DNA of 32,000 nt from positions 2,700,001 through 2,732,000 of the forward strand of contig NZ_LN831039.1 in NCBI RefSeq assembly GCF_001457595.1, written 5' to 3'. This document shows positions 5,149 to 25,291 of this stretch, in pieces. Each line of letters opens with the position of its first letter. The first letter of the stretch is position 1. The notes under the pieces are model-generated. The model was not told the origin of the DNA. It did not search any database and saw only the letters and a list, made by a program, of their open reading frames with translations. Position numbers and translations under genes: made by a program. This DNA comes from Mycolicibacterium smegmatis (lineage in GTDB: Bacteria; Actinomycetota; Actinomycetes; Mycobacteriales; Mycobacteriaceae).

Positions 5149-5176
5149 GCTTTACAAAAATGCGCCTCAGTGTCAG
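5149..5176 (-). promoter_or_regulatory. Regulon motif copy A (gene sense cTGACACT-N10-TTTGTAAAG) immediately upstream of the aldehyde dehydrogenase ATG
   Basis: Minus-strand read: ACTGACACTgaggcgcattTTTGTAAAGctgtacagcATG. There are 8 nt between TAAAGC and the ATG at 5140. Confidence 0.55.
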
Positions 5177-5205
5177 TAGCTTGCGTGAAATTTTTGGGCG
5201 ATCGA

Positions 5206-5784
5206 TCAGTTTGTGTCGGTCTGCCTGATGCCGACGGCGTGACGCAACTGCGCGAGGAACTGATCGGCGTCGTCACTGCGCACGATGTAGTGCGAGATCG
5301 CGACCCGGATCGCGGTCGCCGCCTTGACCGCCGCGTTGGGACCGGACAGCAGCTTGAGCAGGCGCGCGCGCATGATCGGGATGACGTGTGCCAACTGGGC
5401 GATGACCACCTCGGGTTCGATGTCCACCAGGCGCACGCCGGAATACGACTGCTGGTACTGCACGATGAACCGCAGCGCCGCATCGAGTTTCTCGTTGCCC
5501 CGCAGGCCCGCGGTCGCGCGCCCGATCCCGTTGTCGAACATCTCGCGCTCGTAGTTGCCGAACGCCTCGAGCAGTTCCTGCTTGTCGGCGAACCACCGGT
5601 ACAGCGTCGGCCGCGAGACCCCTGCCTGCAGCGCCACCTCGGACAGGCTCAACTTGGTCTGACCGCTGCGAGCGAGCACCTCGGCGGTGGCCACCAGGAT
5701 CCGGTGGCGGGTCGAGGTGTCCGCACCCGCTCCCGCGGGCAGAGCTTCATTCACAGTCGAGCCTCGGTTGGTCGTGGTTCTCAA
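5206..5784 (-). CDS. TetR-family transcriptional regulator (paralog 1)
   Basis: HTH region LSLSEVALQAGVSRPTLYRWF. Clear paralog of the TetR at 9984..10544. The start is uncertain: TTG at 5784, or GTG at 5754 with a GAGG RBS. Confidence 0.85.
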   Translation of the reverse strand: MRTTTNRGSTVNEALPAGAGADTSTRHRILVATAEVLARSGQTKLSLSEVALQAGVSRPTLYRWFADKQELLEAFGNYEREMFDNGIGRATAGLRGNEKLDAALRFIVQYQQSYSGVRLVDIEPEVVIAQLAHVIPIMRARLLKLLSGPNAAVKAATAIRVAISHYIVRSDDADQFLAQLRHAVGIRQTDTN

Positions 5785-5796
5785 ATCCTAGGGTCA

Positions 5797-6936
5797 TCAC
5801 AAGAGTTTCTTGAGTAAAGCCACGGTTTCCAGGTCCGCCAGCGCCGCGACGCCGCGCCGAGCCCCCTCCACCGCGATGCCGTCGTCCTGCATGCCGCCCA
5901 GCCCCGCGGTGATGACCGGCGCGGTGTACGCATAGACCGCGCCGAGGCGGTAGCGCTCCCACAACTCGTCGGCGTCCAGCCTGGGGCCGCCTGCCGCGGC
6001 CAGCGCGCGACGGTACTCGTCGAGGAGGTCTTTCTCCGCGGCTTGCCGGTCGGTGGTCGTCATGCTGGTGATCAGCGTATACGCGAGCTCGCGTCCGGGG
6101 TGGCCACGGCGCACCGCCTGCCAGTCCAACAGGCCCGCCTCGCCGTTGCGGAAGAAGAGGTTGCCGGGGTGTGCGTCACCGTGCATCACGGTGTGCGGCG
6201 GACGGTCGAGCAGTTGTGCGGCCGCACGGTAGTTCTCGTCGATGAACCGGCCGTCGGCCACCGGGATGTCGGTACGCTCGGCGAGCCGCCGGGTCGAGGT
6301 CTTCAGGAGCGTCCCGGTCAGCAGCGAGGTGTCGTCCCCGGACGCCGAATACAGCCACCCGAGTGGGCCGCGGCCGCTGCGCTCGGGCAGCCGGCCCCAG
6401 AACGCGGCGTGCACACGGGCGAGCAGTTCGACCGTGAGCGCCGCGCGGTCCTTGTCGAGTGGATGCAGCGTGTCGGGAAACTCACAGGGCTCCTGCGCGA
6501 GGTCCTCGAGCACCAGCACGAAGCGCCCCGTGAGCGCGTCGAACGCCGAACCGTGGGCGCGGGGGACGCCGGGCAGGCCCGCCGCGAGCTGCTGGTAGAA
6601 CCGGACCTCGGTGTGCGCGAGCCTGCCGAGCTCACCCATCAGCCGGGTCGCGGCGGTCTCGGCGGGCAGCTTGACGAACACCGTCTCGGGAACGCCGTCG
6701 CCCGAGAGCGCCAGCCGGGCCCGTGACGACGTTCCGGCGTCGCCTCCGAGTACTGATAACGTGCGTACCGTCCGTCCCATGATGGTGCTGAGGCAACCGG
6801 CGTCGAGATCGGAGATGCGACGCGGGAACCGCCGCAGTCCGCCGAGCGCGGCGTCGGCGGCGACGCGCTGCACACCGTGGCCGATGTGGGCGGCCAGCGC
6901 AAGAGCGGGTGGGATGCGACGGACCGTCGAGAGCAT
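5797..6936 (-). CDS. Phosphotransferase-family protein (APH / ecdysteroid-kinase-like small-molecule kinase fold)
   Basis: Brenner-type catalytic motif HGDAHPGNLFF followed by LLDWQ. N-terminal Lys region FVKLP. The ATG at 6936 is 6 nt downstream of TAAACT of motif copy B. Confidence 0.8.
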   Translation of the reverse strand: MLSTVRRIPPALALAAHIGHGVQRVAADAALGGLRRFPRRISDLDAGCLSTIMGRTVRTLSVLGGDAGTSSRARLALSGDGVPETVFVKLPAETAATRLMGELGRLAHTEVRFYQQLAAGLPGVPRAHGSAFDALTGRFVLVLEDLAQEPCEFPDTLHPLDKDRAALTVELLARVHAAFWGRLPERSGRGPLGWLYSASGDDTSLLTGTLLKTSTRRLAERTDIPVADGRFIDENYRAAAQLLDRPPHTVMHGDAHPGNLFFRNGEAGLLDWQAVRRGHPGRELAYTLITSMTTTDRQAAEKDLLDEYRRALAAAGGPRLDADELWERYRLGAVYAYTAPVITAGLGGMQDDGIAVEGARRGVAALADLETVALLKKLL

Positions 6937-6944
6937 CAGTCAAG

Positions 6945-6970
6945 TTTACAAATAACTGCGCTTTTGTAAA
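6945..6970. promoter_or_regulatory. Regulon motif copy B: perfect palindrome TTTACAAA-N10-TTTGTAAA between divergent genes
   Basis: TTTACAAA at 6945-6952 and TTTGTAAA at 6963-6970 are exact reverse complements. Minus strand reads TTTACA-16 nt-TAAACT-6 nt-ATG(6936). Plus strand reads TTTACA-16 nt-TAAATG-10 nt-GTG(6983). Confidence 0.6.
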
Positions 6971-6982
6971 TGCAAACGCGCA

Positions 6983-7681
6983 GTGTTGGCACGCGGGAGT
7001 GAAGCGGACAAAGGGCGCGGAGCGTTTGAGGTTGGTGAAGTGCGGTTAGACACAAACGTGTCCGCGAGTGGCGCCTGGTGCGCCGGCGGGCGTGTGGTGA
7101 GCTTGGATTTCGATGGGTTGCATGTGAATTCGATACGTAAGGGTTTGCCGGGCGAGGGCGGGCAGGTGCCGGTCGACGGCGCCGAGATCGTCCTGTTCCC
7201 CGGCAGGCTGCCGGTGCCCGCGCCGCAGCTGGCGAGGGTGGCCGCGCACGCGCGCACGCTGGCTGCGGTGGCCTATGAGGACATCAGCGCCAACGGCGAC
7301 AACCCCGTGACCGCACACGCACACTGGGGAGTGTTCCAGCGCTTCCCGGTGGTGACCCGCACGATGACCGCGGTGTGGCGCATGATGGCGGCCCGCTCGT
7401 TCGACGACCTGGCCGACGAGTTGGAGATCGGCTTCGTCCATCCCCGCACGATCGGCGAGCATGTGACCCTGTCGCTGATCATCGGTGACGCCCACGGACT
7501 ACTCGATGCCGTGGCGACCCAGGCCCTGCGGGGTTCGCTGATCGACACCACGCTCGTGCGGGATCTGCACGATCCGGCGTCCAGCGTGGCGCGCCGCGTC
7601 GCCGACGAACCCGACATCTGGTTCCAGCCGTTGATCGCGGGCTTCGAGCGGGATCCGGGCCGCGGGTTCCGCAGGTGCTGA
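6983..7681 (+). CDS. Hypothetical protein (no recognisable domain)
   Basis: The 232-codon ORF has high GC3 from about 7150 onward. The first 50 or so codons are compositionally atypical (tta, ata, agt, aca), so the true start may be downstream. GTG 6983 lies just after the plus-strand promoter half of palindrome B. Confidence 0.5.
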   Translation: MLARGSEADKGRGAFEVGEVRLDTNVSASGAWCAGGRVVSLDFDGLHVNSIRKGLPGEGGQVPVDGAEIVLFPGRLPVPAPQLARVAAHARTLAAVAYEDISANGDNPVTAHAHWGVFQRFPVVTRTMTAVWRMMAARSFDDLADELEIGFVHPRTIGEHVTLSLIIGDAHGLLDAVATQALRGSLIDTTLVRDLHDPASSVARRVADEPDIWFQPLIAGFERDPGRGFRRC

Positions 7682-7696
7682 CGCACGCCGCGGCGG

Positions 7697-9946
7697 TCAC
7701 GGACGCACGGCGTTGAGCGCCGCGAGCAAATCGTCGAGACGTTCAGGGGTCACCTTGCCCCCGGAGAGCGCGACCATCCGCTCGATCGGCACGGACTCCA
7801 GCATCCGCAACAGATCGGTTCCCATGGCGGGTGCGTCCTGCGCGGCGGTGCCCAGTGTCTCGAAGAGCAACGGCGCGGCGGCCGGGTCGGCGAGGATCTC
7901 GCCCAGTGTCGACTCTCTGGTGAACACCGCCCTGGGGACGTCTCCCTCGACGGTGACGGTCGCATGCAGGCGCAGATCCCGGCTCGATGCGCCCACCGAC
8001 ACCGTGTAGTCACCGGGCTCGACGCCCCACTGTCCGCTGCGAATTTCCCAGAACGCGAGATCGGTTCGGCGAATGGGGATTTCAAGGGTGCGACGCTCAC
8101 CGCTTTCCAGGCTGAGGCTGCCGAACCCGGCCAGCCAGCGTGGTGGCCGGCTGATTTGGGGGTCCGGTTTGGACACGTACACCTGGACCACCTCGCGACC
8201 GGCCCGCGGACCGACGTTGGCCACCACGACGCGCACCGTGGGTCCGTCGGAGTCGACCTCCAGATCGGAAAACGCGAACGCCGTGTAGGACAGGCCGTGA
8301 CCGAACGGGAACGTGACCTCGAGAGCGCGCGCGTCATACCAGCGGTAACCCACGAAAACGCGCTCACCGTAGACGGTGTGGCCGTTCTCGGACGGGAAGT
8401 TCAGGAACGCCGGGCAGTCCTGCAGGCGTACGGGCACGGTCTCGGCCAGGCGCCCGGACGGGTTCACGGCCCCGAACAGCACGTCGGCGACGGCGCCGCC
8501 GCCGGCCTGCCCGAGCAGTGCTCCATCGAGGATCGCCGGGGCGTGTTTCGCGACCTCGTCCAGGCGTACGACGCCACCGTGGGACAGCACGACCACCGTG
8601 CGGGGTTGCACCTCGACCACCGCACGCAGCAGCGCCAACTGCGCCTGCGGCAGGTCGATGTGCTCACGGTCGTAGCCCTCGGATTCCTCGTCGGCGGTCA
8701 GGCCGAGGAACAGCACCGCGGCCTCGGCCTCGGCCGCGCCACGTACCGCCTCCGCGCGCACCTGCTCGCTGTCCTGTCCGGAATCGGTTGGCAGGCCGGG
8801 GAAGTGGGTGGCAGCCTGATCACCGTTGCGGGCACGGATCTCGTCGAGCGGGATGTCGAGGCGCGTGGGGTTGACGTGTGAGCTGCCGCCGCCCTGATGG
8901 CGGGGTTCCTCGGCGAACGGCCCGATGACCGCGAGCCGCGACGGGGCCAGCGGCAGGATCGGTTCTCCGTCGCGCAGATCGTTCTTGAGCAGCACCACGG
9001 CCTGTGCGGCAGCCTCACGCGCAAGGCGATGATGGGCCTCGGTCAGCTCGCCGATGTCGAAATGACCGGCAGCGCTGTGGCTTTCGTACGCGCGCACCGC
9101 CAGGCCGGCCACCCGTTCGGCGGCCGTGGTCACCGCACGCGCGTCGAGTGCGCCCGCGGTCACCGCGGCCACCACCTCGGCGTCGCCGAAACCGCCCGAT
9201 GACGGCATCTCCAGGTCCAGGCCGGCCGCCACGGCCGCGACACGGTCACGCACCGCGCCCCAGTCGCTGACCACCACGCCGTCGAAACCCCATTCGCCGC
9301 GCAACACGTCGGTGAGCAGCCAGGTGTTCTCGGAGGCGTACACGCCGTTGATGCGGTTGTACGAGCACATCACGGTCCACGGCGCGGCCTCGCGCACCAC
9401 GTGCTCGAACGCCCGCAGATAGATCTCACGCAGCGTGCGGGCGTCGACGTCGGAACTGGCACGCATGCGGTCGTGCTCGGAGTTGTTGACCGCGAAGTGT
9501 TTCAGCGACGCACCGACACCGCGGCCCTGCACACCGCGTACCCACGCCGCGCCGAGCACGCCGGACAGCAGCGGATCCTCCGAGAAGTACTCGAAGTTGC
9601 GGCCGCAGCGCGGGTCCCGCTTGATGTTGACGCCGGGGCCGAGCAGCACGTGCACTCCCAGCGCACGGGCCTCGGCGCCCAGTGCGGCGCCGACGCGTTC
9701 GACGAGATCCGGGTCCCACGTCTGGCTCAGCGCGACGGCCGGAGGAAAACATGTCGCGGGTTCACTGCCGCCGACACCCAGGTGATCTGACGCCCCGCTC
9801 TGCCTGCGCACGCCGTGCGGTCCGTCGGTGAGCACGATCGACGGGATGTGCCCGACAGCCTCGGTGGTCCAGAAACTCGCGCCGCTGCCCAGTGCGGCCT
9901 GCTGGGTCAGCGTCAGGGTCGGGGCATGTGCGAGTGGGTCCGTCAC
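7697..9946 (-). CDS. Glycoside hydrolase family 3 beta-glucosidase (BglX-like, with C-terminal FnIII-like domain)
   Basis: GH3 nucleophile motif VVSDWGAV and KHFAVNNSE. Preferred start is the GTG at 9946 with RBS GGGAAGG. An alternative ATG at 10012 would overlap the TetR 3' end. The rest of ORF 7697..10282 is an out-of-frame shadow of the TetR gene. Confidence 0.9.
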   Translation of the reverse strand: MTDPLAHAPTLTLTQQAALGSGASFWTTEAVGHIPSIVLTDGPHGVRRQSGASDHLGVGGSEPATCFPPAVALSQTWDPDLVERVGAALGAEARALGVHVLLGPGVNIKRDPRCGRNFEYFSEDPLLSGVLGAAWVRGVQGRGVGASLKHFAVNNSEHDRMRASSDVDARTLREIYLRAFEHVVREAAPWTVMCSYNRINGVYASENTWLLTDVLRGEWGFDGVVVSDWGAVRDRVAAVAAGLDLEMPSSGGFGDAEVVAAVTAGALDARAVTTAAERVAGLAVRAYESHSAAGHFDIGELTEAHHRLAREAAAQAVVLLKNDLRDGEPILPLAPSRLAVIGPFAEEPRHQGGGSSHVNPTRLDIPLDEIRARNGDQAATHFPGLPTDSGQDSEQVRAEAVRGAAEAEAAVLFLGLTADEESEGYDREHIDLPQAQLALLRAVVEVQPRTVVVLSHGGVVRLDEVAKHAPAILDGALLGQAGGGAVADVLFGAVNPSGRLAETVPVRLQDCPAFLNFPSENGHTVYGERVFVGYRWYDARALEVTFPFGHGLSYTAFAFSDLEVDSDGPTVRVVVANVGPRAGREVVQVYVSKPDPQISRPPRWLAGFGSLSLESGERRTLEIPIRRTDLAFWEIRSGQWGVEPGDYTVSVGASSRDLRLHATVTVEGDVPRAVFTRESTLGEILADPAAAPLLFETLGTAAQDAPAMGTDLLRMLESVPIERMVALSGGKVTPERLDDLLAALNAVRP

Positions 9947-9983: not shown

Positions 9984-10544
9984 TCACTCCCGGCGCCTCG
10001 GCCGCGCCACATGGCGCAGTTGTGCCAGGAAGTCGTCGGCGTCGTCGCTGCGCACCAGGTAGTGCGATATCGCGACGCGCACCGCGGTCGCCGCCGCGAC
10101 GTCGCTGTCGGGCCCGGTGGTGAGGCGTTGCAGGCGTTCGCGCAGCAGCGGCATGATCTGGGACAGCCGCCGGATGACGTGCTCGGGTTCGATGTCGACC
10201 ATGCGCAGGCCCGGGTAGGACCGCTGGTACTCGGCGATGACGCGCAGGGCCGCGTCGAGGCGCTCGGATGCAGGCAGTGCACCGGTGGCCTGTGCGACGG
10301 CCTGCTCGTAGCCGCGACGTTCCCACACCACGAACGCGTCGAGCAGATCCTGCTTCGACGAGAACCACCGGTACAGCGTGGGTCTGGAGACGCCGGCCTG
10401 CGACGCGACGTCGGACAGGCTGAGTTTCGTCGTCCCGTTGCTGCCGAGAACCTCCGCGGTGGCGGCGAGTATGCGCTCGCGGGTGCTGCTCGCCTCGGTC
10501 CCAGCGTCGGTCCCAGCGTCGGTCCCAGCGTCGGTCCCAGCCAT
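9984..10544 (-). CDS. TetR-family transcriptional regulator (paralog 2), N-terminal (AGTD)n repeat
   Basis: HTH region LSLSDVASQAGVSRPTLYRWF. Collinear similarity to the 5206..5784 product. The ATG at 10544 lies 7 nt downstream of TAAAGC of motif copy C. Confidence 0.85.
   Translation of the reverse strand: MAGTDAGTDAGTDAGTEASSTRERILAATAEVLGSNGTTKLSLSDVASQAGVSRPTLYRWFSSKQDLLDAFVVWERRGYEQAVAQATGALPASERLDAALRVIAEYQRSYPGLRMVDIEPEHVIRRLSQIMPLLRERLQRLTTGPDSDVAAATAVRVAISHYLVRSDDADDFLAQLRHVARPRRRE
10497..10541 (-). repeat. In-frame 12-bp tandem repeat, about 3.75 copies (plus strand GGTCCCAGCGTC), encoding AGTD-AGTD-AGTD-AGTE at the TetR N-terminus
   Basis: Units at 10497-10508, 10509-10520 and 10521-10532 are identical. 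A partial fourth unit runs 10533-10541. Confidence 0.9.
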
Positions 10545-10551
10545 GGGACAA

Positions 10552-10581
10552 GCTTTACAAACTATCGAGTAAGTGTCACGC
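10552..10581 (-). promoter_or_regulatory. Regulon motif copy C upstream of TetR paralog 2, in the divergent intergenic region shared with P450-ferredoxin
   Basis: Minus-strand read: GCGTGACACTtactcgatagTTTGTAAAGcttgtcccATG. Confidence 0.55.
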
Positions 10582-10629
10582 TAAATCTCGGCGTGGCCCA
10601 CCGCGGCACGCCTGTAGGAGGACAGGAAC

Positions 10630-13804: not shown

Positions 13805-13813
13805 GGCGACGTA

Positions 13814-13843
13814 CCTTTACAAAACACGCCTTGAGTGTCACGC
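13814..13843 (-). promoter_or_regulatory. Regulon motif copy D, in the divergent region between the SMP-30 gene and the 7-gene operon
   Basis: Minus-strand read: GCGTGACACTcaaggcgtgtTTTGTAAAGgtacgtcgccGTG. An extra TGTCAC copy lies at 13852-13857 on the plus strand. Confidence 0.55.
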
Positions 13844-13879
13844 TCGCAAGGTGTCACTGTCAACCACCGGAGCACCGTG

Positions 13880-14584
13880 ATGAAGAAGTACTACAGCCAC
13901 ACGTTGCTGTATCTCCACGAGACGATCGACCTGGGATCGGGCCGCACCGACACGTTCACCGAGGTCTTCGGCGAGGTCTACCGACCGATGATGGAGGACC
14001 TCGGGGCGCGGTTGTTCTCCGTGTGGGAGACCACGCCGTACAACGGTCACTGGCCGCAGGTGACGATCATCTGGGAGATCGACGCGTTCGCCGACTATGC
14101 GCGGATCGGCAGGGCGCAGGCCGTCGGTGGCAGCCACGAGAAGCAGGCGCTCCGGTGGTCGTCGTACCTCTCGGAGACCGGGGCCCGCGGCGAGGGCCGA
14201 ATCATGTACGCGGGCAGGTACAACCGCACGCTCGCGCAACTCCGGCAGGACGACGTCAAGGCCGGTCTGGTGATCCAGGAGGTCATGCAGACCAAGCCGG
14301 GCCGCCAGGACGACTACATCCGCGAACTCGAACGCCTCTACGTGCCGTGGTCGGAGCGCACCGGTAAACGCTGGCTGGGATCGTTCATCACGACATTCCG
14401 GTTCAACGAGGTGATCCACTACTGGGCCCTCGACGACGACTGGGACTGCTTCGAGAACCACTACCCGTCGTGGAAGGACAGCCCGCCGGCCGAGATCGTC
14501 ACGTGGATGAGCGTGGCACCCGCGTTGCGTGACGGTTGGGAGGACTCGATCCTGCAGGCCCTGCCCCCGTCCCCGCTGCGATGA
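13880..14584 (+). CDS. NIPSNAP-like / dimeric alpha-beta barrel tandem-domain protein
   Basis: ATG at 13880 (GGAG 8 nt upstream) within ORF 13835..14584. Two internal half-repeats with W..T.....W/IW patterns typical of NIPSNAP domains. This call comes from pattern memory only. Confidence 0.5.
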   Translation: MKKYYSHTLLYLHETIDLGSGRTDTFTEVFGEVYRPMMEDLGARLFSVWETTPYNGHWPQVTIIWEIDAFADYARIGRAQAVGGSHEKQALRWSSYLSETGARGEGRIMYAGRYNRTLAQLRQDDVKAGLVIQEVMQTKPGRQDDYIRELERLYVPWSERTGKRWLGSFITTFRFNEVIHYWALDDDWDCFENHYPSWKDSPPAEIVTWMSVAPALRDGWEDSILQALPPSPLR

Positions 14585-15831
14585 CCACGACGGTGAAACC
14601 GCCTGTGACGGAGGCGGTCACGGGAGAGTTCAGCTACGACCCGTTCGATCCGGCCGTGATGGCCGACCCGACTCCGTACTACCGTGTGCTGCGCGAGAAG
14701 TATCCGCTGTACCACATCGAGAAGTGGGACACCTGGGCGCTGTCGCGGTTCTCCGACATCTGGGAGGTGCTCGAGGTCAACGACGGCACCTTCGTCGCCT
14801 CCGAGGGAACCCTGCCCGCGGCAACGGTTCTCGCCGAACACAACGACGGCGCCGTACCGGATCCGCCATGGCATCCCATGCCGTTTCACGCCAACTTCGA
14901 CACCCCGATCTACGACAGCGTGCGGCGGTGCACCTCGCCGCAGTTCCGCCCACGCTCGGTGACCAAACTGGCCGACCGCATCCGAACCCTGGCCAACGAA
15001 CGTCTCGACGAACTGCTGCCGCGTGGACAGTTCGACCTCACACAGGACTACGGCGGCATCGTCGCGGCCTCGGTGGTGTGCGAACTGGTCGGGCTGCCGG
15101 TGGATCTGGCGGCTGACGTGCTGGCCACCGTCAACGCGGGGAGCCTCGCCGAACCGGGCAGCGGTGTCGAGGTGGCCAACGCACGCCCGGGTTATCTGGA
15201 GTACCTGACGCCGGTGGTGCAGCGGCGCCGCGCCGGTGAAGGCCGCGAACTGCCGATCGTCGACAACCTGCTGCAGTACCGGTTGCCCGACGGATCGGCG
15301 TTCAGCGATCTCGAAGCCGCCGTGCAGATGCTCGGCGTCTTCATCGGCGGCACCGAGACCGTGCCGAAAATCGTCGCGCACGGACTGTGGGAACTCACAC
15401 GACATCCCGAGCAACTCGCGGCCGTGCGAACCGACCTCGACGCCAACGTGCCGATCGCGCGCGAGGAGATGATCCGCTTCTGCGCGCCCGCACAGTGGTT
15501 CGCACGCACCGTGCGAAAGCCGTTCACGCTGCACGGCACCACGCTGCAACCCGGACAGCGCGTCATCACACTGCTGGCATCGGCCGGCCGTGACGAACGC
15601 GAATACCCGGACCCGGACTCGTTCATCTGGGACCGCCGCATCGAACGGCTACTGGCGTTCGGCCGCGGGCAGCACTTCTGCCTCGGCGTCCACCTGGCGC
15701 GTCTGGAGATCACGATCATGGTGACCGAATGGCTCAAGCGTGTCGGCGAGTTCCGGGTCGACGAGCGGGCGGCCCGGCGCCCGCCGTCGAGCTTCCAGTG
15801 GGGCTGGAACAACGTGCCGGTCGAGGTGTGA
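14581..15831 (+). CDS. Cytochrome P450
   Basis: ATG at 14581 overlaps the preceding stop (ATGA). ExxR motif (EEMIRF). Heme loop FGRGQHFCLGVHLA. Confidence 0.9.
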   Translation: MTTTVKPPVTEAVTGEFSYDPFDPAVMADPTPYYRVLREKYPLYHIEKWDTWALSRFSDIWEVLEVNDGTFVASEGTLPAATVLAEHNDGAVPDPPWHPMPFHANFDTPIYDSVRRCTSPQFRPRSVTKLADRIRTLANERLDELLPRGQFDLTQDYGGIVAASVVCELVGLPVDLAADVLATVNAGSLAEPGSGVEVANARPGYLEYLTPVVQRRRAGEGRELPIVDNLLQYRLPDGSAFSDLEAAVQMLGVFIGGTETVPKIVAHGLWELTRHPEQLAAVRTDLDANVPIAREEMIRFCAPAQWFARTVRKPFTLHGTTLQPGQRVITLLASAGRDEREYPDPDSFIWDRRIERLLAFGRGQHFCLGVHLARLEITIMVTEWLKRVGEFRVDERAARRPPSSFQWGWNNVPVEV

Positions 15832-15832
15832 C

Positions 15833-16801
15833 GTGTGGTCCTACCGTCTGGTCGCGCCGTATGTGTTCGAACGCTCCGACCTGCGGGCGCCGTCACCGGA
15901 TGCGCTGACCGACGGTCAGGTGCTGCTGAGCTTCTCGGCCGCAGGCATCTGCGGCAGCGACATTCCCGGGTTCCGCGGCACGCAGGGCAAGCTGCCGGGG
16001 GACACCGGCGCGAGTGCCGCGCAGATGCCGGGCTTCCCGATCCACGAGATCGCCGGTGAGGTACTCGCGAGCAGACATCCGGACCACCGCGTGGGCGACC
16101 ACGTCGTGGGCTGGGCCTCGGGATTCGACGGCCTGATGGAGCAGGTGATCGCCGACGGCGACGGCCTCGTCTCGTACGACCCGGCGTTGCCGCCGCGCCT
16201 GGCGGTCGGATTGCAACCCCTGGCCTGTGTGCTCTGTGCCGTCGAACAGTTGCCCGACCTCGACGGCCGGCACGTCGCGGTGATCGGACAGGGTTCGATC
16301 GGTCTGCTGTTCTCCTATGTGGCAAAGGCTCTCGGCGCCGCACGCGTCACCGGTGTCGACCCCCTCGACCGTTCCGCCATCGCCGCGCGCTGCGGCATCG
16401 ACACCCCGGTGCGCGCCACGAGCGACCGCTGGGTCACGCACCTGGACCCGGACGACCGGGCCGACGTGGTGATCGAGGCCGTCGGCCACCAGGTCGCCAC
16501 GCTCAACCACGCGCTCACCGCGGCGGCATTCGGCGGCACGGTCTTCTACTTCGGCGTCCCCGACGACGACAGCTACCCGATCAGCATGCGCACCATGCTG
16601 CGCAACAACCTCACGCTGAAATCCGGTGTGACAACCGACCGGCAACGCGTGCTGCGCCGCGCCGACACGTTCGCCCGCGAGCATCCCCACCTGTTGCCCG
16701 GCTACGTCACGCACACATTCGGCGTCGACGACGTACAGGCCGCTTTCGAACTGGCGTGCCGTCCGGTGCCCGACCGCGTCAAGATCGTGGTGGCGCGATG
16801 A
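15833..16801 (+). CDS. Zinc-type medium-chain alcohol dehydrogenase
   Basis: GTG lies 1 nt after the P450 stop, with GAGG RBS. Motifs: GICGSD and HEIAGEV zinc-ligand motifs, GQGSIGL nucleotide-binding motif. Confidence 0.8.
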   Translation: MWSYRLVAPYVFERSDLRAPSPDALTDGQVLLSFSAAGICGSDIPGFRGTQGKLPGDTGASAAQMPGFPIHEIAGEVLASRHPDHRVGDHVVGWASGFDGLMEQVIADGDGLVSYDPALPPRLAVGLQPLACVLCAVEQLPDLDGRHVAVIGQGSIGLLFSYVAKALGAARVTGVDPLDRSAIAARCGIDTPVRATSDRWVTHLDPDDRADVVIEAVGHQVATLNHALTAAAFGGTVFYFGVPDDDSYPISMRTMLRNNLTLKSGVTTDRQRVLRRADTFAREHPHLLPGYVTHTFGVDDVQAAFELACRPVPDRVKIVVAR

Positions 16802-17580
16802 CCGCGAGCAGGCTGCAGCAGGCCCTGGCCGACCGGCAGACCGTCTGGGGCGGCTGGGTGGTCGGCCCGACCATCCTGGGTCCCGAGGAGTTCGCCGCCG
16901 CCGGATACGACTACGTCGGATTCGACGTCCAGCACGGGTATCTCGACGACGCCGACGTGGCACTGCTGCTGCGCCGCCTCGAACACGTGCCGATCGCCAC
17001 TGCGGTGCGCCTGCCCTCGCCCGACCCGGCGCCCATCGGACGGGTGCTCGACGCCGGCGCCGACGCGGTGATCATCGCCATGGTGGAGACGCCCGAACAG
17101 GCCGCGGCCGCCCTGGCCGCCACCCGGTACGCCCCCGAGGGCGTGCGCAGCTTCGGGCCGTTGCGCGCAAGCCTCGGTCACGACACCGTCGCGCTGCAAG
17201 AACGCGCGAGCGTGATCGCGATGATCGAGACCGCCACAGGCGTTGCGGCAGTGCAGGATATCGCCGCGGTGGCCGGCCTGACGGGTCTCTATGTCGGACC
17301 TGCCGACCTGGCGATCTCGATGGGAAACCAACCCACCGACGCCTGGACACATCCCGACGTCCTCGCGGCGTTCGTGACCGTGCGGCAGGCCGCCGACGCG
17401 GCCGGGCTGGCCGGCGGGATACACGCCGGGACCGGACGCGCCGGTAAGGCCGCGGCAGACATGGGATTCCGGATGATCACGCTGGCTTCGGAATCCCAGG
17501 CGCTGCGCCGCGGTGCGGTCGAACACCTCGACGAGGCCACCGGCGCGGGTGGTGGCCATGAACAAAGGGGATACCTCTGA
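16798..17580 (+). CDS. HpcH/HpaI-family aldolase (2-keto-3-deoxy acid / 4-hydroxy-2-oxo acid aldolase-like)
   Basis: ATG overlaps the ADH stop (ATGA). Family-like segments GYDYVGFDVQHG, VRLPS and MIETA. The TIM-barrel aldolase call comes from pattern memory. Confidence 0.7.
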   Translation: MTASRLQQALADRQTVWGGWVVGPTILGPEEFAAAGYDYVGFDVQHGYLDDADVALLLRRLEHVPIATAVRLPSPDPAPIGRVLDAGADAVIIAMVETPEQAAAALAATRYAPEGVRSFGPLRASLGHDTVALQERASVIAMIETATGVAAVQDIAAVAGLTGLYVGPADLAISMGNQPTDAWTHPDVLAAFVTVRQAADAAGLAGGIHAGTGRAGKAAADMGFRMITLASESQALRRGAVEHLDEATGAGGGHEQRGYL

Positions 17581-17594
17581 GTCCAGGGAGTGCA

Positions 17595-18332
17595 GTGAGT
17601 CCAGTGACCGTCGACCGCGTAGCGCTCGTGACCGGCGCCGCGCGTGGCCAGGGTGCGGCCATCGTGGCGAAACTGGTCGCCGACGGGTTCCGGGTTGCCG
17701 CAACGGATCTCATGATCGACGACCTCCGTATGTCGACCGCGGACCTGGGCGGCGCCGTGATCGCGCTCGAGCTCGACGTCACCTCCGCCGAACAGTGGCA
17801 GTGGGCCGTGCACGCCACGGTCGAGGAGTTCGGCTCGCTGGGCGCCCTGGTGAACAACGCGGGCGTCCTGCACCGCGCCTCGCTCGACGACGAGACGCCG
17901 GACGGTTTCGAGGGCAGTTGGCGGGTGAACTGCCTGGGCCCGTTCCTCGGCATCCGCACCGCCCTGCCGCATCTGCGCCGCGTCGACGGGGCCGCGGTGG
18001 TCAACACGTGCAGCACGGGCGCGATCCGCCCGTTCCCGAACCATGCCGCCTACGGCTCGTCGAAATGGGCGCTGCGGGGGCTCACCCAGGTGGCCGCGGC
18101 CGAGCTGGCCCCCGACGGAATCCGCGTCAACGCGGTCTTTCCCGGACCGGTCGCCACCCCCATGCTCGACGAGAGCACCCAGGAAAGGCTCGCGGCCAGG
18201 GCCGCGGCGGGGCGCCTCGCCAGACCGGCCGAGATCGCCGACGCCGTGGCATTCCTGCTCTCCGAGCACGCGTCGTTCATCACCGGATCCGAGCTCGTCG
18301 TCGACGGCGGGCAATGTCTGCAGATCGGATGA
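17595..18332 (+). CDS. Short-chain dehydrogenase/reductase
   Basis: GTG start after RBS gggag. Motifs: VTGAARGQGAA, NNAG, and catalytic YGSSK. Confidence 0.85.
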   Translation: MSPVTVDRVALVTGAARGQGAAIVAKLVADGFRVAATDLMIDDLRMSTADLGGAVIALELDVTSAEQWQWAVHATVEEFGSLGALVNNAGVLHRASLDDETPDGFEGSWRVNCLGPFLGIRTALPHLRRVDGAAVVNTCSTGAIRPFPNHAAYGSSKWALRGLTQVAAAELAPDGIRVNAVFPGPVATPMLDESTQERLAARAAAGRLARPAEIADAVAFLLSEHASFITGSELVVDGGQCLQIG

Positions 18333-19828
18333 GCATGTCCATCGGGATCATCGGCGCCGGACCGGGTGGTCTGGCCCTCGGAATCTTTCTGAAAAAGGCC
18401 GGTTTCCGCGATTTCACGATCTTCGACAGGGAAGACGGCGTCGGCGGGACGTGGCGCATCAACACCTACCCTGGGCTGGCGTGCGACGTGAAATCGCACC
18501 TGTACTCCTACTCGTTCGACCTCAACGCCGACTGGACGAGGTTGTGGTCCTCGCAGCCCGAGATCCTCGCGTACTTCGAGCGGTGTGCCCAGCGGCACCA
18601 GCTCGAATCCCACCTGGTGCTGGGCACCGAGATCACCTCGGCGCGCTGGGACACCGACGGCTGGGTGCTCACCACCTCGGGTGGGGACGAGCAGCGGTTC
18701 GACTTCGTGGTGTCCGCGGTGGGACTGTTCACCCAACCGCTGCTGCCCGACCTCGTCGAGGAGGAACCGTTCACCGGAACCGTGCTGCACACCGCGCGCT
18801 GGGACCACTCGATACCGCTGGCGGGCAAGAAGATCGCGGTACTGGGTACGGGGTCCACGGCCGCGCAACTGGTCCCGGAACTGGCGAAAGTCGCCGACAC
18901 GGTCTACTCGGTGCAGCGCTCGCCCACGTGGATCCTCCCCAAACCCGACCGCCCCTACACCGACCGTGAGCGGTGGGTCTTCGCACACGTGCCGCTGGCC
19001 AAGAAGATCTACCGCACCCGGCTGTGGCTGCGCAGCGAGTCGAACATCTCGGTCATCGAACACGGCAGTGACAAGACGCAGGAGTTCAGGTCGATAGCAC
19101 TGAACATGCTGCGGTCCACCGTGACCGACGACGAGTTGCGCGAACGGCTCACACCCGATCATCCGCTGGGTTGCAAGCGGCTGGTGTTCTCGTCGGACTT
19201 CATCCCGACCCTGACCCGCCCGAACGTCGAGGTGGTGTCGAGTCCCGCGCGGGCACTGCGGTCGAGGTCGCTGGTCACCGAGGACGGCCGCGAACTCGAC
19301 GTCGACATCGTCGCGTGCGCAACCGGATACGCCGCGGCCGACTATCTGGGCCAGATCGAGGTGACGGGGGAGGGCGGGATCCGGTTGCACGATGTGTGGC
19401 GCGACGGGGCCTACGCCTACCTGGGGATGACCGTGCCCGGGTTCCCGAACTTCTTCATGCTCTACGGGCCGAACACCAACGTCGGATCCAACAGCGTGAT
19501 CTTCGTCCTGGAGGCGCAGGCCCGCTACGTCGTGCGTGCACTGAAACACCTACGGCGCAGACGGAAGTCGTATGTGGCGGTGAAACCCGAGGTGATGGCG
19601 CAGTTCATCGCCGACATCGACCGGTGGATGCAGGGCACGGTGTGGCTCACCCGGTGCAGCAGCTACTTCCGTGCACCCAACGGCCGGGTGGTCACGCAGT
19701 GGCCCCGTAGCGCCCGCGCGCTGTGGGCCATGACGCGGCGGTTCCGCGCCGCGGACTACCTGTTCAGCGCACCCGTCGACGGCCAGGCGCAGGTGGTCGA
19801 GGTGGCGGCCCACGAAACGGTCGGCTGA
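18329..19828 (+). CDS. Type I Baeyer-Villiger (flavin-containing) monooxygenase, EthA-like size class
   Basis: ATG 18329 overlaps the SDR stop (ATGA). Motifs: FAD motif GAGPGG, GGTWRINTYPGLACD, BVMO fingerprint FTGTVLHTARWD, and second Rossmann GTGSTA. The upstream part of ORF 17513..19828 is Arg/Pro-rich shadow. Confidence 0.85.
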   Translation: MSMSIGIIGAGPGGLALGIFLKKAGFRDFTIFDREDGVGGTWRINTYPGLACDVKSHLYSYSFDLNADWTRLWSSQPEILAYFERCAQRHQLESHLVLGTEITSARWDTDGWVLTTSGGDEQRFDFVVSAVGLFTQPLLPDLVEEEPFTGTVLHTARWDHSIPLAGKKIAVLGTGSTAAQLVPELAKVADTVYSVQRSPTWILPKPDRPYTDRERWVFAHVPLAKKIYRTRLWLRSESNISVIEHGSDKTQEFRSIALNMLRSTVTDDELRERLTPDHPLGCKRLVFSSDFIPTLTRPNVEVVSSPARALRSRSLVTEDGRELDVDIVACATGYAAADYLGQIEVTGEGGIRLHDVWRDGAYAYLGMTVPGFPNFFMLYGPNTNVGSNSVIFVLEAQARYVVRALKHLRRRRKSYVAVKPEVMAQFIADIDRWMQGTVWLTRCSSYFRAPNGRVVTQWPRSARALWAMTRRFRAADYLFSAPVDGQAQVVEVAAHETVG

Positions 19829-19829
19829 C

Positions 19830-20762
19830 ATGGCTCACAGGTCCGGATGGACCGAGCGCCTGGATCCCGCGCTGCGCGAATTCGCCGGTGCCCGCACCGA
19901 TCTGTCGCCCGAAACCCTTGCGGTGGTGCGGGCCTCGATCGACCGGCGTCGCCGTGAATCGGCGCAGACGCTCGACACGTTCGGCGTGGCCATCGCAGGC
20001 GGCCGGGCCGCGCTGGGCCGGCGCAGTGTGCCGGTGCGCATCTACCGTGGCGGCCCGTCGCCTGCACCCGTGGTCGTGTACTGCCACTCGGGCGCGTTCG
20101 TGCTGGGCAACCTCGACGTCGACCAGCGGCAATGCGTCGAACTGGCGCGGCGTGGGCAGTGCACGGTCGTGGCCATGGACTACCGCCTCGCCCCCGAACA
20201 TCCGTACCCCGCAGCGCTCGACGACGCCGCGATGGTGCTGGCCTGGGTGGCCGCGCAGGCCGGTGAACTCGACGTCGACCCGGATCGGATCGCGGTCGCG
20301 GGCAGCAGTGCCGGTGGTGCGCTGGCCGCGTTGCTGGCACAGCGGTCCGCGACGGGCGCCGCGCCTCCAATCGTGTTCCAGTTGCTGCACCAGCCGGTGC
20401 TCGACGACCGCCCGACCCGCTCCGAGCGCGAATTCGTCGACACACCCGGTTTCGACGGCCCCGCGACGGTCGCGATGTGGCGTCACTGGCTGGCCGGCCG
20501 CGCGGCGCCCGACGGCGCCGTACCGGCCCGCGCCACCGAGATCTCGGACATGCCTGCGGCTTTCATCAGCTGCTCGGAACTGGACCCGCTGCGCGACGAA
20601 GCACTCGACCATGCGCGCAGGCTGATCGACGGCGGCGTGTCCACCGAGCTGCACGTGTTCGCGGGTACCTGCCACGGATTCGACTCACTGCTGCCCGAGT
20701 GGGAGGTCAGTCAGGAACTGTTCACCCTGCAGGGGGCGGCACTGCGCCGGGCCCTGCGCTGA
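19830..20762 (+). CDS. Alpha/beta hydrolase, family IV (HSL-like) esterase/lipase
   Basis: ATG lies 1 nt after the BVMO stop. Oxyanion-region variant CHSGAF, nucleophile elbow GSSAGG, DPLRDE, and catalytic His in CHGF. Confidence 0.85.
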   Translation: MAHRSGWTERLDPALREFAGARTDLSPETLAVVRASIDRRRRESAQTLDTFGVAIAGGRAALGRRSVPVRIYRGGPSPAPVVVYCHSGAFVLGNLDVDQRQCVELARRGQCTVVAMDYRLAPEHPYPAALDDAAMVLAWVAAQAGELDVDPDRIAVAGSSAGGALAALLAQRSATGAAPPIVFQLLHQPVLDDRPTRSEREFVDTPGFDGPATVAMWRHWLAGRAAPDGAVPARATEISDMPAAFISCSELDPLRDEALDHARRLIDGGVSTELHVFAGTCHGFDSLLPEWEVSQELFTLQGAALRRALR

Positions 20763-21846: not shown

Positions 21847-21853
21847 GAGGTCC

Positions 21854-23311: not shown

Positions 23312-23550
23312 GACCGTCCTGTGCTCGTCTGTGCCGGCGAACCGGCACTGATGGCACGGGAACCCTGATCCCGTTCGGCGCGATGTGCTTTGGTGCCCAG
23401 CGTGCCGATGCGGAGGATTCCCGCGAGATCGCACGCACTTTTCGAGAGCGAGGGACGCGCGTGGCGCCCCGCCACGCAACGATGTGGGCAACACCGTTAC
23501 GTGCAATCCTTACTTGCAGACACGAGTACATCCAACGCGTGTTATCTCGC

Positions 23551-23580: not shown

Positions 23581-23679
23581 ATCCTCTCGGCATGCCCGCG
23601 GCACCGGAGGTGCGACGCCGCCGGGCAGATAGGCTGACACCGGCGCGGCCCTCACGGGCCCCGAGTCGCGGAGGGCATT

Positions 23680-23976: not shown

Positions 23977-23988
23977 CGGTCCGTCAGA
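23972..23988. repeat. 17-nt perfect palindrome TCTGACGG-T-CCGTCAGA containing the stop codons of both convergent genes
   Basis: TGA of the cupin gene (23974-23976) and TCA, the minus-strand stop of the SRPBCC gene (23984-23986), are placed symmetrically in the palindrome. Confidence 0.8.
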
Positions 23989-24457
23989 CGCCTGCGAGTT
24001 CGCGCGCGACCGCGGCGTGGTACCTGTCGATGTTGGCCGGGTTCACGATGCGGAACAGCGCATCGGGCAACGGGGATTCCTTGTAGGCCTCGATGGTCAT
24101 GGTGCGGCTGAACAACGTGACGTCCGGGCCTGGACGCGTGAACTGGTACTGCACGGTGATCCGGCCGTCCATGCCGCCGTTGCCGTCCCGATCGTGCCCG
24201 AGCCGGCCGACGGAGTTGAACACCCACAACCGCGGACGCATCGCGATCGCGAGATGCCACGTGTAGATTTGCTGGCCGTCCGGGCCTGCCTCGCTCCAGG
24301 TGTCCCCGACCTGCAACGGCAACCGGTCCGGCAGGCCCTCGATGTGCGCGCTGCCAGGGTAGGTCTTGGTCCAGTTCGCCGGGTTGGTCACGAAATCGTA
24401 GACAGTTTCCGCCGATTGGGGGAATGCCGTCTCCGAGCTGGTGGTCACGATGCCCAA
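23984..24457 (-). CDS. SRPBCC (START/polyketide-cyclase-like) ligand-binding domain protein
   Basis: The C-terminal 157 codons of ORF 23984..25228 have normal composition. TTG 24457 (RBS agaaagg) or GTG 24448 could be the start. The pattern AETVYDFVTNPANWTKTYPG is typical of the SRPBCC N-terminus. The upstream part of the ORF is Arg-rich shadow of the DUF427 gene. Confidence 0.6.
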   Translation of the reverse strand: MGIVTTSSETAFPQSAETVYDFVTNPANWTKTYPGSAHIEGLPDRLPLQVGDTWSEAGPDGQQIYTWHLAIAMRPRLWVFNSVGRLGHDRDGNGGMDGRITVQYQFTRPGPDVTLFSRTMTIEAYKESPLPDALFRIVNPANIDRYHAAVARELAGV

Positions 24458-24477
24458 CTGTGTTGCCTTTCTTGTGA

Positions 24478-25185
24478 TCACACGGAGCAGCCGCAGGCCG
24501 CGGTGCTCGCGCCTGCGGGGAGTTCGGCGACGACGTCCACCCGCGCCGGGTCGAAGCTCAGATGCCCACGCAGCGGTTCGGCCTCGGGCGGGGTGTCCGG
24601 GTAGCTCCACGCGACGTCGCTGATGACGGTGTCCGCGACGACGGCCGCCCAGTAGGTGGCGACGCCCTTGTAGTTGCAGTAGGTGGTGGTGTCGGTACGG
24701 TGCAGCAGATCGGTGCGGACCAGTGCCGGGCTCACGTACAGGCGGGGTTCCAGGGCCGTCTCGAACACGATGATTGTGTCGTCGGTGTCGACGAGCACGG
24801 TGTCGCCCACCGCGACCCGCAGCCTGCGCTTGGTGGGCCTGCAGTCGATGCGGTGATACGGGTTGGGGGGATAGTGCACCAGACGGCGGCCCTCTTCCAT
24901 CCACACCTCGACAGCGTCCCACGGCACCGTGACGTATCCGGGCGCTTCCGGTACCGCCACGGCGGGCAGGCCGCCGACCTCGTCGACCGGAAAGGCGTAG
25001 CTCAGCGGGCTCCCGGCCCGGTGCACCATGAGGGCGCACTCGGTGTCGATCAGCGCGTCGCCGCCGACGAAGGCCTGGACGCGCCGGGGATGTGGCTCGA
25101 TGTAGACGGCCGGTGCGGGCAGCGGTGGCGAGAACCAACCGGCCGGCCGGTTGCTCAGGGGCCCGTGGCCTGCGACGAGACTCAT
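24478..25185 (-). CDS. DUF427-domain protein (tandem)
   Basis: 235 aa. YCNYKGVATYW matches the DUF427 C.YKG.A.Y signature. ATG 25185 is preceded by RBS ggaggtgg and overlapped by the stop of a 23-codon uORF. Confidence 0.7.
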   Translation of the reverse strand: MSLVAGHGPLSNRPAGWFSPPLPAPAVYIEPHPRRVQAFVGGDALIDTECALMVHRAGSPLSYAFPVDEVGGLPAVAVPEAPGYVTVPWDAVEVWMEEGRRLVHYPPNPYHRIDCRPTKRRLRVAVGDTVLVDTDDTIIVFETALEPRLYVSPALVRTDLLHRTDTTTYCNYKGVATYWAAVVADTVISDVAWSYPDTPPEAEPLRGHLSFDPARVDVVAELPAGASTAACGCSV

Positions 25186-25253
25186 TGCGCCACCTCCGGT
25201 TTGACGACCGCACCGCGGGGCTGTGCACCGACGGGAGGTTGTGATCGCGTCAC
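25182..25253 (-). CDS. Candidate leaderless 23-codon uORF (VTRSQPPVGAQPRGAVVKPEVAQ) translationally coupled to the DUF427 gene
   Basis: GTG at 25253 lies 8 nt after TAAAGC of motif copy E, the same geometry as the four leaderless genes. Its TGA (25184-25182) overlaps the DUF427 ATG (25185-25183) as ATGA. Confidence 0.3.
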   Translation of the reverse strand: MTRSQPPVGAQPRGAVVKPEVAQ

Positions 25254-25261
25254 GACAAGGA

Positions 25262-25291
25262 GCTTTACAGATTCTTCAACAAATGTCACGC
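25262..25291 (-). promoter_or_regulatory. Regulon motif copy E upstream of the uORF-DUF427-SRPBCC unit
   Basis: Minus-strand read: GCGTGACATTtgttgaagaaTCTGTAAAGctccttgtcGTG. An extra TGTCAC copy lies at 25306-25311 on the plus strand. Confidence 0.5.

Follow-up and report, generated by a model that had tools for sequence, protein, structure and literature searches.

In the Tn10 tetA/tetR region, the operators tetO1 and tetO2 lie over overlapping divergent promoters, and the repressor controls both itself and its target. In mycobacteria, KstR and KstR2, which are TetR-family repressors of cholesterol catabolism, are autoregulated and act, family-wide, on a repeated operator before lipid-catabolic genes, including those for cytochromes P450 of the CYP125/CYP124 group. 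Here we analyse a 32,000-nucleotide stretch of the Mycolicibacterium smegmatis genome (contig NZ_LN831039.1; "the window", numbered from its first letter), in which a 32-bp element stands at five promoters of a gene cluster that encodes two TetR paralogs. We consider the most probable reading, at roughly 60%, to be that the element is a quasi-palindromic promoter-operator cassette, composed of two opposed leaderless sigma-A-type promoters and bound by the two TetR proteins of the cluster. That it is a cis-regulatory promoter element, whatever binds it, is highly probable.

As in the textbook tetA/tetR case, a TetR-family gene and a divergent target share one short control region, and blocks about 20 bp apart recall adjacent operators. 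However, the sequences are unrelated, the two blocks of the cassette are unlike each other and weakly palindromic, leaderless transcripts are predicted, and the element is reused at no fewer than five promoters. The KstR and KstR2 regulons are similar in that a mycobacterial TetR protein and a repeated operator are linked to lipid-catabolic genes, but their operators are compact 14-bp palindromes, whereas the cassette spans 32 bp and doubles as a promoter, and the TetR proteins of the window are not close to KstR (E ~1e-4 to solved KstR chains). The consensus sequences of KstR (TnnAACnnGTTnnA), KstR2 (AnCAAGnnCTTGnT) and CRP (TGTGA-N6-TCACA) found no convincing match in the five cassettes, in agreement with an earlier note on this DNA, and their matches in the window were at chance level. 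The sole CRP-type overlap is a match with two mismatches at 10544-10559, which runs into one of the cassettes (C, listed below).

Longer TetR operators have been described, such as the 28-bp IR1 of QacR, the 55-bp site of EthR and the non-palindromic site of Mce3R (PMC4482099). Sites of this kind, which need more than one dimer or a double-domain repressor, would fit the distance of about 21 bp between the symmetric cores of the cassette. Unlike QacR IR1, the cassette has an unconserved centre (positions 12-19), and the similarity to Mce3R is limited to the helix-turn-helix (HTH), the two TetR proteins of the window being ordinary single-domain proteins. Bidirectional promoters with a shared -10 element have starts that flank this one -10, usually at a separation of 18 bp, though separations of 10 and 23 bp are frequent too (Warman et al.; PMC12825309). 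The likeness consists of a pseudo-symmetric segment that would engage RNA polymerase in either orientation, but the cassette is not of this type: its -10 elements are separate and lie at opposite ends, its predicted starts are about 45 bp apart, and each -10 with its TGT overlaps the -35 of the opposing promoter. Studies of leaderless mRNAs and small open reading frames (ORFs) of mycobacteria (Shell et al. 2015, PMC4633059; 10.1101/834739) report start codons 6-8 nt after A-N3-T and leaderless short ORFs standing first in operons, as is found here, although they concern a genome-wide class and not this motif. Searches of the literature by sequence string, locus tag and CYP268A2 returned no description of the motif, of the regulators, of their targets or of most locus tags, and the claim of the earlier note that this is not a described operator stands within that scope. 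The element is outside any described operator family and resembles the tetA/tetR region and the KstR regulons in concept.

The element in the window and across mycobacteria

The pattern TGACAYT-N10-TYTGTAAAS matched the minus strand of the window at 5150-5175, 10553-10578, 13815-13840 and 25263-25288, compared with no match in 100 dinucleotide-preserving shuffles. A fifth copy (B) was recovered through TTTGTAAA, which occurs five times in the window where 0.02 occurrences are expected; two of the five are the arms of this copy, at 6945-6970. All five copies are therefore found where the earlier note had placed them, and the spacer that it had given as 10 nt measures exactly that in each. Its distances to the start codon were each one too small: measured from the 9-mer, the start codon follows after 9 nt in A, 8 in C, 10 in D, 9 in E and 7 in B. 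For A, B, C and D, the start codon that follows is also the one given in public annotations, that of an aldehyde dehydrogenase (ALDH, 494 aa), a kinase (379 aa), a TetR protein (186 aa) and an SMP-30 protein (294 aa), respectively. The full conserved element comprises 32 bp and is longer than the bipartite motif first described. Its copies are as follows, "forward" being the gene sense of the minus strand; scores are those of a weight matrix built from about 190 sites of other species, for which the best shuffle reached 1.9 bits.

5148..5179, minus strand: cassette A; exact pattern match; 22.5 bits; forward towards the ALDH gene
6942..6973, minus strand: cassette B; symmetric subtype TTTACAAA-N10-TTTGTAAAC; -9 bits; forward towards a kinase-like gene and TetR1
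10551..10582, minus strand: cassette C; AGCGTGACACTT-N9-TTTGTAAAGCT, the full consensus; exact pattern match; 47 bits; candidate forward promoter towards TetR2 and a GH3 gene, candidate reverse promoter (TTTACA-17-TGT-CACGCT) towards a P450/ferredoxin pair
13813..13844, minus strand: cassette D; exact pattern match; 45 bits; forward towards an SMP-30 lactonase and a thioesterase gene, candidate reverse promoter towards a putatively leaderless 9-codon upstream ORF (uORF) and then a seven-gene operon (NIPSNAP-like, P450, alcohol dehydrogenase (ADH), aldolase, SDR, Baeyer-Villiger monooxygenase (BVMO), esterase)
25261..25292, minus strand: cassette E; TCTGTAAAG variant; 39 bits; forward towards a putatively leaderless 23-codon uORF, then DUF427 and SRPBCC genes

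The idea that these are five copies of one motif holds for A, C, D and E, whereas B is a distinct symmetric subtype, as its negative score indicates. This variant, TTTACAAA-N10-TTTGTAAA, is also present at the kinase promoter in about 10 loci of other species, where it lies between the kinase gene and a CoA-transferase gene or uncharacterised genes. The T-to-C variant of cassette E was seen again in other species. The inverted repeat described earlier is perfect in B only; elsewhere it is partial, with 6 of about 11 conserved half-site positions being symmetric. In the numbering used below (bases 0-31, gene sense), the symmetric pairs are A0/T31, C2/G29, T4/A27, A6/T25, C7/G24 and A8/T23, and five further conserved positions are asymmetric.

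Conservation was assessed by scanning one genome per species (596 Gb) for the exact pattern GCGTGACA-N12-TTTGTAAAG. This returned at least 120 loci with at least 145 exact sites, nearly all of them in Mycobacteriaceae (Mycobacterium, Mycolicibacterium). Among the matches listed were slow growers (M. gordonae, M. kyorinense, M. parascrofulaceum) and, outside the two genera, one Aldersonia; two further matches, in Solibacter and Limisphaerales, look random because the extra conserved bases are absent there. Since about 70 random matches to a 17-base pattern are expected over the whole collection, the concentration of sites in mycobacteria represents a very strong taxonomic enrichment. In three orthologous clusters, obtained via TetR2 homologues (M. 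goodii, an M. wolinskyi-like strain and M. duvalii), the motif stood at the same promoters with identical arms and flanks, and the spacer varied in sequence but always measured 10 nt; cassette C was conserved in all three.

The consensus derived from these sites is A0-GCGTGACAC-TT-N8-W-TTTGTAAAG-N-T31. Alignment of 144 listed sites showed that positions not forced by the pattern were also conserved, namely A0 (130/144), C9 (115/144), T10 (142/144), T11 (125/144), T31 (114/144) and a W at position 20, while the centre of the element was not. A further 56 imperfect sites in the same loci retained a never-changing core, T4 G5 A6 C7 A8. T10 ... T23 G24 T25 A26 A27 (A28) G29, with G29 and A26 present in 56/56 and T10 in 53/56; outer bases 0-3 and 31 varied with context. 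In two Mycobacterium species (loci L045, 3936-4060, and L048, 5374-5500), a full cassette before a TetR gene was followed about 30 nt on by a degenerate copy, CGCGTGACACC-N-CCTGTAATCCT, which directly precedes the start codon, so that the sites are in tandem.

The gene contexts of the sites recur. The commonest is an SMP-30 gene downstream (47 of the 145 listed exact sites), in 24 cases with the NIPSNAP-like gene that heads the BVMO operon on the divergent side. A homologue of TetR1/2 lies directly downstream of 41 of the 145 sites, and in 30 of these cases a P450 or ferredoxin gene stands on the divergent side; such a homologue is present in 63 of the 120 listed 8-kb loci. Other site classes lie between thioesterase and SRPBCC genes, and further neighbours include DUF427, wax-ester synthase, thiolase-like, acyl-CoA dehydrogenase, SDR and SnoaL genes. 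In one class, the site stands at the 3' end of a family III CoA-transferase gene, with the reverse direction pointing towards a conserved 195-aa protein without Pfam family. The earlier proposal of a conserved cis-regulatory element tied to this cluster is thereby borne out, by its promoter distance, its place in front of TetR genes and in TetR/P450 divergent regions, and its recurrence in more than 100 mycobacterial genomes. A coding-region test of the sites was discarded: it flagged 24 of 140, but each of these was a known promoter site over which a spurious open frame ran, as is typical of GC-rich DNA.

Two proposed opposed promoters and the placement of start codons

Both strands of all five window copies parse as xTxACA, 14 nt, TGT and a hexamer. 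The forward promoter would consist of a -35 GTGACA (3-8), a 17-bp spacer ending in an extended -10 TGT (23-25) and a -10 AAAGnT (26-31), and the reverse promoter of a -35 TTTACA (28-23), a 17-bp spacer, an extended -10 TGT (8-6) and a -10 CACGCT (5-0). Forward -35 variants are CTGACA in A and TTTACA in B, the forward hexamers are AAAGCT, AAAGGT and AAACTT, and the forward promoter of cassette B reads TTTACA-16/17-TAAACT/AAACTT. The -10 element, which the earlier note had taken to be TAAAGC, is more aptly read in the phase AAAGnT, which puts A at -11 and T at -7. The mycobacterial sigma-A pattern (A at -11, T at -7, an optional TGn and a TTGACA-like -35 about 17 bp upstream) is found, as xTxACA-14 nt-TGT-xAxxxT, in the forward direction in all five copies and in the reverse direction in C and D; the reverse hexamers of A (CAGTAG), B (AAATGC) and E (CACGCG) lack the T at -7. 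Read on the opposite strand, the ACA at the end of either -35 is the extended -10 TGT of the other promoter, which explains most of the dyad.

A divergent ORF tends to go with base A0, the source of the reverse -7 T (128/18 vs 25/25, odds ratio 7.1, p = 2e-7, for sites that are non-independent). Sites of the ALDH type lack a divergent gene, and the sequence of their left flank varies freely (GGGG, GTGG, CTCC, etc.) while TGACAC is fixed; cassette A is equally degenerate on this side, with CTAC for AGCG, no reverse -10 and no divergent gene. The suggestion that the divergent P450 and BVMO units share the control regions is strengthened by these data, since those units have a -35/-10 pair of their own on the reverse strand and sites with a divergent gene more often carry the reverse -7 T. 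We think it likely that the cassette works in both directions where A0 is present.

Start codons are placed accordingly on both sides, as compared with a chance expectation for ATG/GTG of about 3% per position. On the reverse side, an ATG or GTG lies exactly 5-6 nt past the -7 T in 109 of 146 listed sites, and this is true of several site classes that are unrelated to one another (gtccgGTGAGC, aaatctGTGACA, cgcaggGTGTCA); long ORFs begin at just 26 of the codons, and the majority open short ones. On the forward side, an ATG or GTG lies 5-8 nt past the -7 T in 74 of 136 listed sites, and 65 of the 74 open an ORF of at least 100 codons. The corresponding gaps after T31 in the window are 7, 5, 6, 8 and 7 nt for A to E. 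Judged from sequence positions, this geometry fits leaderless mRNAs in both directions, and the start-codon spacing on which the earlier note had based its leaderless reading holds across species. Two of the codons open unannotated uORFs in the window:

13851..13880, plus strand: 9-codon uORF VSLSTTGAP, GTG start 6 nt past the reverse -10 of cassette D
25182..25253, minus strand: 23-codon, putatively leaderless uORF behind cassette E, GTG start

The first ends in a stop codon that overlaps the start ATG of the BVMO operon's leading gene (TGATG), and the second in one that overlaps the DUF427 ATG (ATGA); both overlaps suggest translational coupling. The GTG of the 9-codon uORF is conserved in D-type sites of other species. 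An extra GTGACAC upstream of D was rejected as a further copy, being merely this GTG and the following codons read on the other strand, and the internal palindromes of the halves (GTGaCAC, TTTgtAAA) were too short to decide anything.

The interval 10583-10629 (plus strand), after the reverse -10 of cassette C, holds a P450 leader of about 41 nt with GGAGGA. In many other species the orthologous P450 gene begins with GTGACAG only 6 nt past the reverse -10, and the M. smegmatis leader looks, from this comparison, like a lineage-specific insertion.

Candidate repressors and competing explanations

Conserved bases that do not belong to either promoter pointed to an additional binding protein. To our knowledge, T10, T21, T22, A26, G29 and, where present, C2 have no recognition role for sigma-A or RNA polymerase; since T10, A26 and G29 are nevertheless invariant, a sequence-specific protein is indicated. 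Furthermore, the hexamers of the two directions match neither one another nor the consensus, but paralogous sites, and the family at large, retain each of them. The cluster encodes two candidates for this protein:

5206..5754, minus strand: TetR1 (MSMEG_2553); Pfam TetR_N, cluster members named TetR/AcrR; second gene behind cassette B
9984..10544, minus strand: TetR2 (MSMEG_2557 by numbering from anchors); Pfam TetR_N, E = 1e-15; first gene behind cassette C

The two proteins are single-domain, about 185 aa long and 63% identical; their HTH regions are almost the same, and the recognition helix GVSRPTLYRWF is common to both. TetR2 has more than 2000 homologues, mostly mycobacterial; its best solved relative is Mce3R, in the HTH region only (E = 6e-11), and it has no close solved structure. 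The locus tag MSMEG_2553 is that of a TetR in the literature (PMC6292918). An autoregulated TetR with divergent targets is a classic arrangement (PMC3511530, PMC4482099), and the putative operator lies here in the regulator's own promoter or in a shared divergent region, which in the window measures 85 bp between TetR2 and the P450 gene. No other DNA-binding domain was seen in the window cluster by Pfam. From these associations, the MSMEG_2553 and MSMEG_2557 paralogs are our favoured binding proteins, with somewhat better than even odds. They may bind as two dimers, one per 12-bp block, or as a larger assembly.

In the mechanism that we propose, each cassette would hold two complete sigma-A-type promoters overlapping head to head. 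Transcription would start about 6-7 nt outside the cassette on each side, directly on an ATG or GTG, and give leaderless mRNAs; the starts are predicted on the first base of the minus-strand codons at 5140, 6936, 10544, 13804 and 25253 and, for the plus strand, at about 10589 and at 13851. These mRNAs would open either with the main gene or with a short uORF coupled to it by overlapping stop and start codons. The TetR paralogs sitting on the cassette would cover both -35/-10 pairs and silence both directions, including their own genes, until a ligand releases them. Judged from the enzymes, this ligand is probably a methyl-branched lipid, a terpenoid-type compound or a CoA ester thereof.

Several observations weigh against this reading. 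The reverse promoter is apparently intact in M. smegmatis only at C and D, and in this species the P450 gene behind cassette C has a 41-nt leader with a Shine-Dalgarno sequence and hence is not leaderless. Symmetry between the conserved halves is incomplete, with differences at 5 of 11 positions, and most symmetric positions are also accounted for by the two promoters alone. The symmetric cores, CnTKACA (K = G/T), lie about 21 bp apart centre to centre, about two helical turns, which is too far for one TetR dimer, and an unusual stoichiometry or two operators must be assumed. M. smegmatis is absent from the genomes listed in the cross-species scan, and the site counts across species are phylogenetically non-independent. 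Finally, the -10 hexamers are poor by E. coli standards, and a simple sigma-70 scan of the window detects B only, because AAAGCT scores 2/6 against TATAAT. As mycobacterial -10 elements require only A-N3-T, this last result was not weighed against promoter function.

If the cassette were no more than a pair of overlapping divergent sigma-A promoters, its conservation would result from the fitting of four promoter elements into 32 bp, and no dedicated repressor would be involved. All symmetric positions but C2/G29 are indeed known polymerase contacts in one of the two directions (-35 ACA, extended -10 TG, -11 A, -7 T), and the start-codon geometry fits on both sides. Yet promoters of mycobacteria are known to vary widely at positions other than A(-11) and T(-7), whereas here non-consensus hexamers and the non-contact bases T10, T21-22, A26 and G29 are kept within the genome and in more than 100 species, the forward and reverse hexamers are unlike each other though each is strictly kept, and the element is confined to one functional gene set with its own regulators; we therefore regard this explanation as unlikely. 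We give a similarly low probability to the possibility that the cassette is an operator or activator site for another protein, encoded elsewhere or uncharacterised in the cluster. A TetR1/2 homologue is present in only 63 of the 120 listed 8-kb loci, the half-site spacing is too wide for typical TetR dimers, and the 195-aa protein adjoins many copies. Against this, 41 of the 145 listed exact sites lie immediately upstream of TetR1/2 homologues, most of them arranged as a classic divergent TetR/target pair, a stretch of 8 kb leaves room for a nearby TetR gene to be missed in the remaining loci, and the window cluster shows no further DNA-binding domain.

A bipartite element with a fixed spacer and strongly conserved hexamers off the sigma-A consensus could also be the promoter of an alternative or extracytoplasmic function (ECF) sigma factor. 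This is very improbable, as no sigma or anti-sigma gene was found in the cluster in any locus examined, and one sigma factor would impose a single consensus, whereas the element reads GTGACA/AAAGnT in one direction and TTTACA/CACGCT in the other and fits the sigma-A pattern (A(-11), T(-7), TGn, xTxACA, 17-bp spacer). We also know of no resemblance to the published SigF, SigH/E, SigD, SigL, SigK and SigJ consensus sequences. The multiple short intergenic copies might recall a dispersed repeat, of the miniature inverted-repeat transposable element (MITE) or repetitive extragenic palindrome (REP) kind, or a chance similarity without regulatory role. This is effectively refuted: only the arms are conserved and not the spacer or flanks, the distance to start codons is fixed, the element stands at orthologous promoters family-wide, and shuffles gave 0 matches. 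A search of the window against Rfam matched no family.

The promoter-operator reading, if correct, would assign an operator, promoters and probable regulators to a large, uncharacterised catabolic regulon that environmental and opportunistic mycobacteria have conserved. Its content would comprise a CYP268-type P450 with its ferredoxin, a second P450, the BVMO and esterase, the lactonase, a thioesterase, a CoA-transferase, the ALDH, SRPBCC and DUF427 proteins and, in some species, wax-ester synthase and thiolase-like genes. A TetR regulon is a known kind of system, but the two-way layout is unusual; if its leaderless form were confirmed, it would clearly illustrate, in a natural case, how about 45 bp between divergent genes can hold two promoters together with their control. 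The cassette would also be a candidate for a tightly repressed, inducible promoter pair for M. smegmatis. More speculatively, and in our opinion improbably, the two TetR paralogs, or a heteromer of them, could recognise the unlike halves GCGTGACACTT and TTTGTAAAG in different ways, which would make each direction separately switchable within a self-contained 32-bp module. Interleaved promoters switched separately, with divergent starts about 45 bp apart, would be an architecture undescribed for TetR systems or bacterial bidirectional promoters, and would offer a compact two-way inducible part for mycobacterial genetics.

Genes of the cluster and further observations

The window covers genes MSMEG_2552 to about MSMEG_2575. 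Locus tags were assigned from single-gene anchors in papers (MSMEG_2561, gluconolactonase; MSMEG_2569, 2-oxoglutarate (2OG) oxygenase; MSMEG_2570, permease) and, for the others, by counting, which gave ALDH 2552, TetR1 2553, kinase 2554, TetR2 2557, P450 2558 and SMP-30 2561. The proposed targets of the cassettes are:

3656..5140, minus strand: aldehyde dehydrogenase, annotated ATG at 5140; Pfam Aldedh, E = 3e-140; target of cassette A
5797..6936, minus strand: APH/EcKL-type kinase-like protein (MSMEG_2554); Pfam APH, EcKL; target of cassette B
7697..9946, minus strand: GH3 glycosidase, 749 aa in public annotation, downstream of TetR2; Pfam Glyco_hydro_3 N and C, Fn3-like
10630-11886, plus strand: CYP268-type P450; Pfam p450; proposed target of the cassette C reverse promoter
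11900-12091, plus strand: 63-aa ferredoxin; Pfam Fer4 families; proposed target of the same promoter
12092-12910, minus strand: acyl-CoA thioesterase; Pfam 4HBT_3, 4HBT_3C; target of cassette D
12920-13804, minus strand: SMP-30/gluconolactonase-like lactonase (MSMEG_2561); Pfam SGL; target of cassette D
13880..20762, plus strand: seven-gene operon (NIPSNAP-like, P450, Zn-ADH, HpcH aldolase, SDR, BVMO, esterase), from Pfam and gene calls in other strains
23984-24481, minus strand: SRPBCC protein, a weak match (Polyketide_cyc2, E = 0.006); target of cassette E
24478-25185, minus strand: DUF427 protein; Pfam NTP_transf_9/DUF427, E = 9e-32; target of cassette E

The nearest solved structure of the CYP268-type P450 is CYP268A2 (6bld, E = 2e-136), of which it is an orthologue; next in order are CYP124 and CYP125, described as hydroxylases of methyl-branched lipids and steroids. 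Because of this relationship, the regulon appears to serve the oxidation of branched lipids or terpenoids. The BVMO of the seven-gene operon resembles steroid and cyclohexanone monooxygenases. The remaining genes on the Pfam map of the window encode an MFS transporter and a 2-hydroxyacid dehydrogenase (plus strand), a cupin (plus strand), a photolyase, dxr, rip1 and ispG. The ALDH is identical to that of M. smegmatis mc2 155 and other strains; the window belongs to a strain other than mc2 155, and its TetR2 and P450 differ slightly.

Between the cassette units, at 20872-23506 (minus strand), lie a 2OG-Fe(II) oxygenase and a xanthine/uracil permease gene (MSMEG_2569, 2570) without cassette. This pair belongs to the GlnR nitrogen regulon (PMC3662644, PMC4222082) and looks like an unrelated insertion in the cluster. 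Two plus-strand ORFs, at 25327-25625 (99 aa) and 6983-7681, are divergent from E and B, respectively; their third-position GC content, 0.85 and 0.84, is coding-like, the former has a GGAGG 8 nt before its ATG, and neither matched a Pfam family. Just upstream of cassette E, at 25297-25312 (plus strand), lies a CRP-like TGCGACGGGTGTCACA with one mismatch to TGTGA-N6-TCACA, a pattern whose matches in the window are at chance level.

Published transcript data touch the region in places. The accessible part of the operon table of Li et al. (2017) has units for MSMEG_2553-2551 and MSMEG_2556-2555 and lists none for MSMEG_2557-2570; because this part of the table contains no unit defined by transcription start sites (TSSs) for the latter genes, it provides weak evidence that the cluster is silent in laboratory culture. 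The accessible part of Martini et al. (2019) gives plus-strand antisense TSSs at NC_008596 positions 2638865 and 2638874, opposite the coding sequence of the MSMEG_2554 kinase. Positions in CP001663 and NC_008596, both from mc2 155 and of near-equal length, seem to differ by about 0.6-1.8 kb in this region, judging from the antisense TSSs, which must fall in MSMEG_2554, and from the GlnR chromatin immunoprecipitation (ChIP) peak at MSMEG_2570. Published coordinates overlaid here must therefore be checked for which record was used.

Codons 2-17 of TetR2 (10495-10541) consist of a perfect 12-nt in-frame tandem repeat with 3.9 copies of the unit TCGGTCCCAGCG, which encodes a repeated AGTD. The length of TetR2 differs among M. 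smegmatis strains (178, 182 or 186 aa), consistent with differences in repeat copy number. The protein of about 195 aa, with the motif LRYRLDVVAASAADVV.SAGGWLYDR.MAGWEVTVLLP, was found downstream of the family III CoA-transferase gene in locus L121 (641-1219, minus strand) and in 22 other loci (e.g. L077, L010). At these loci the cassette comes right after the stop codon of the transferase gene, and its reverse side reaches the gene for the 195-aa protein via a possible leaderless uORF.

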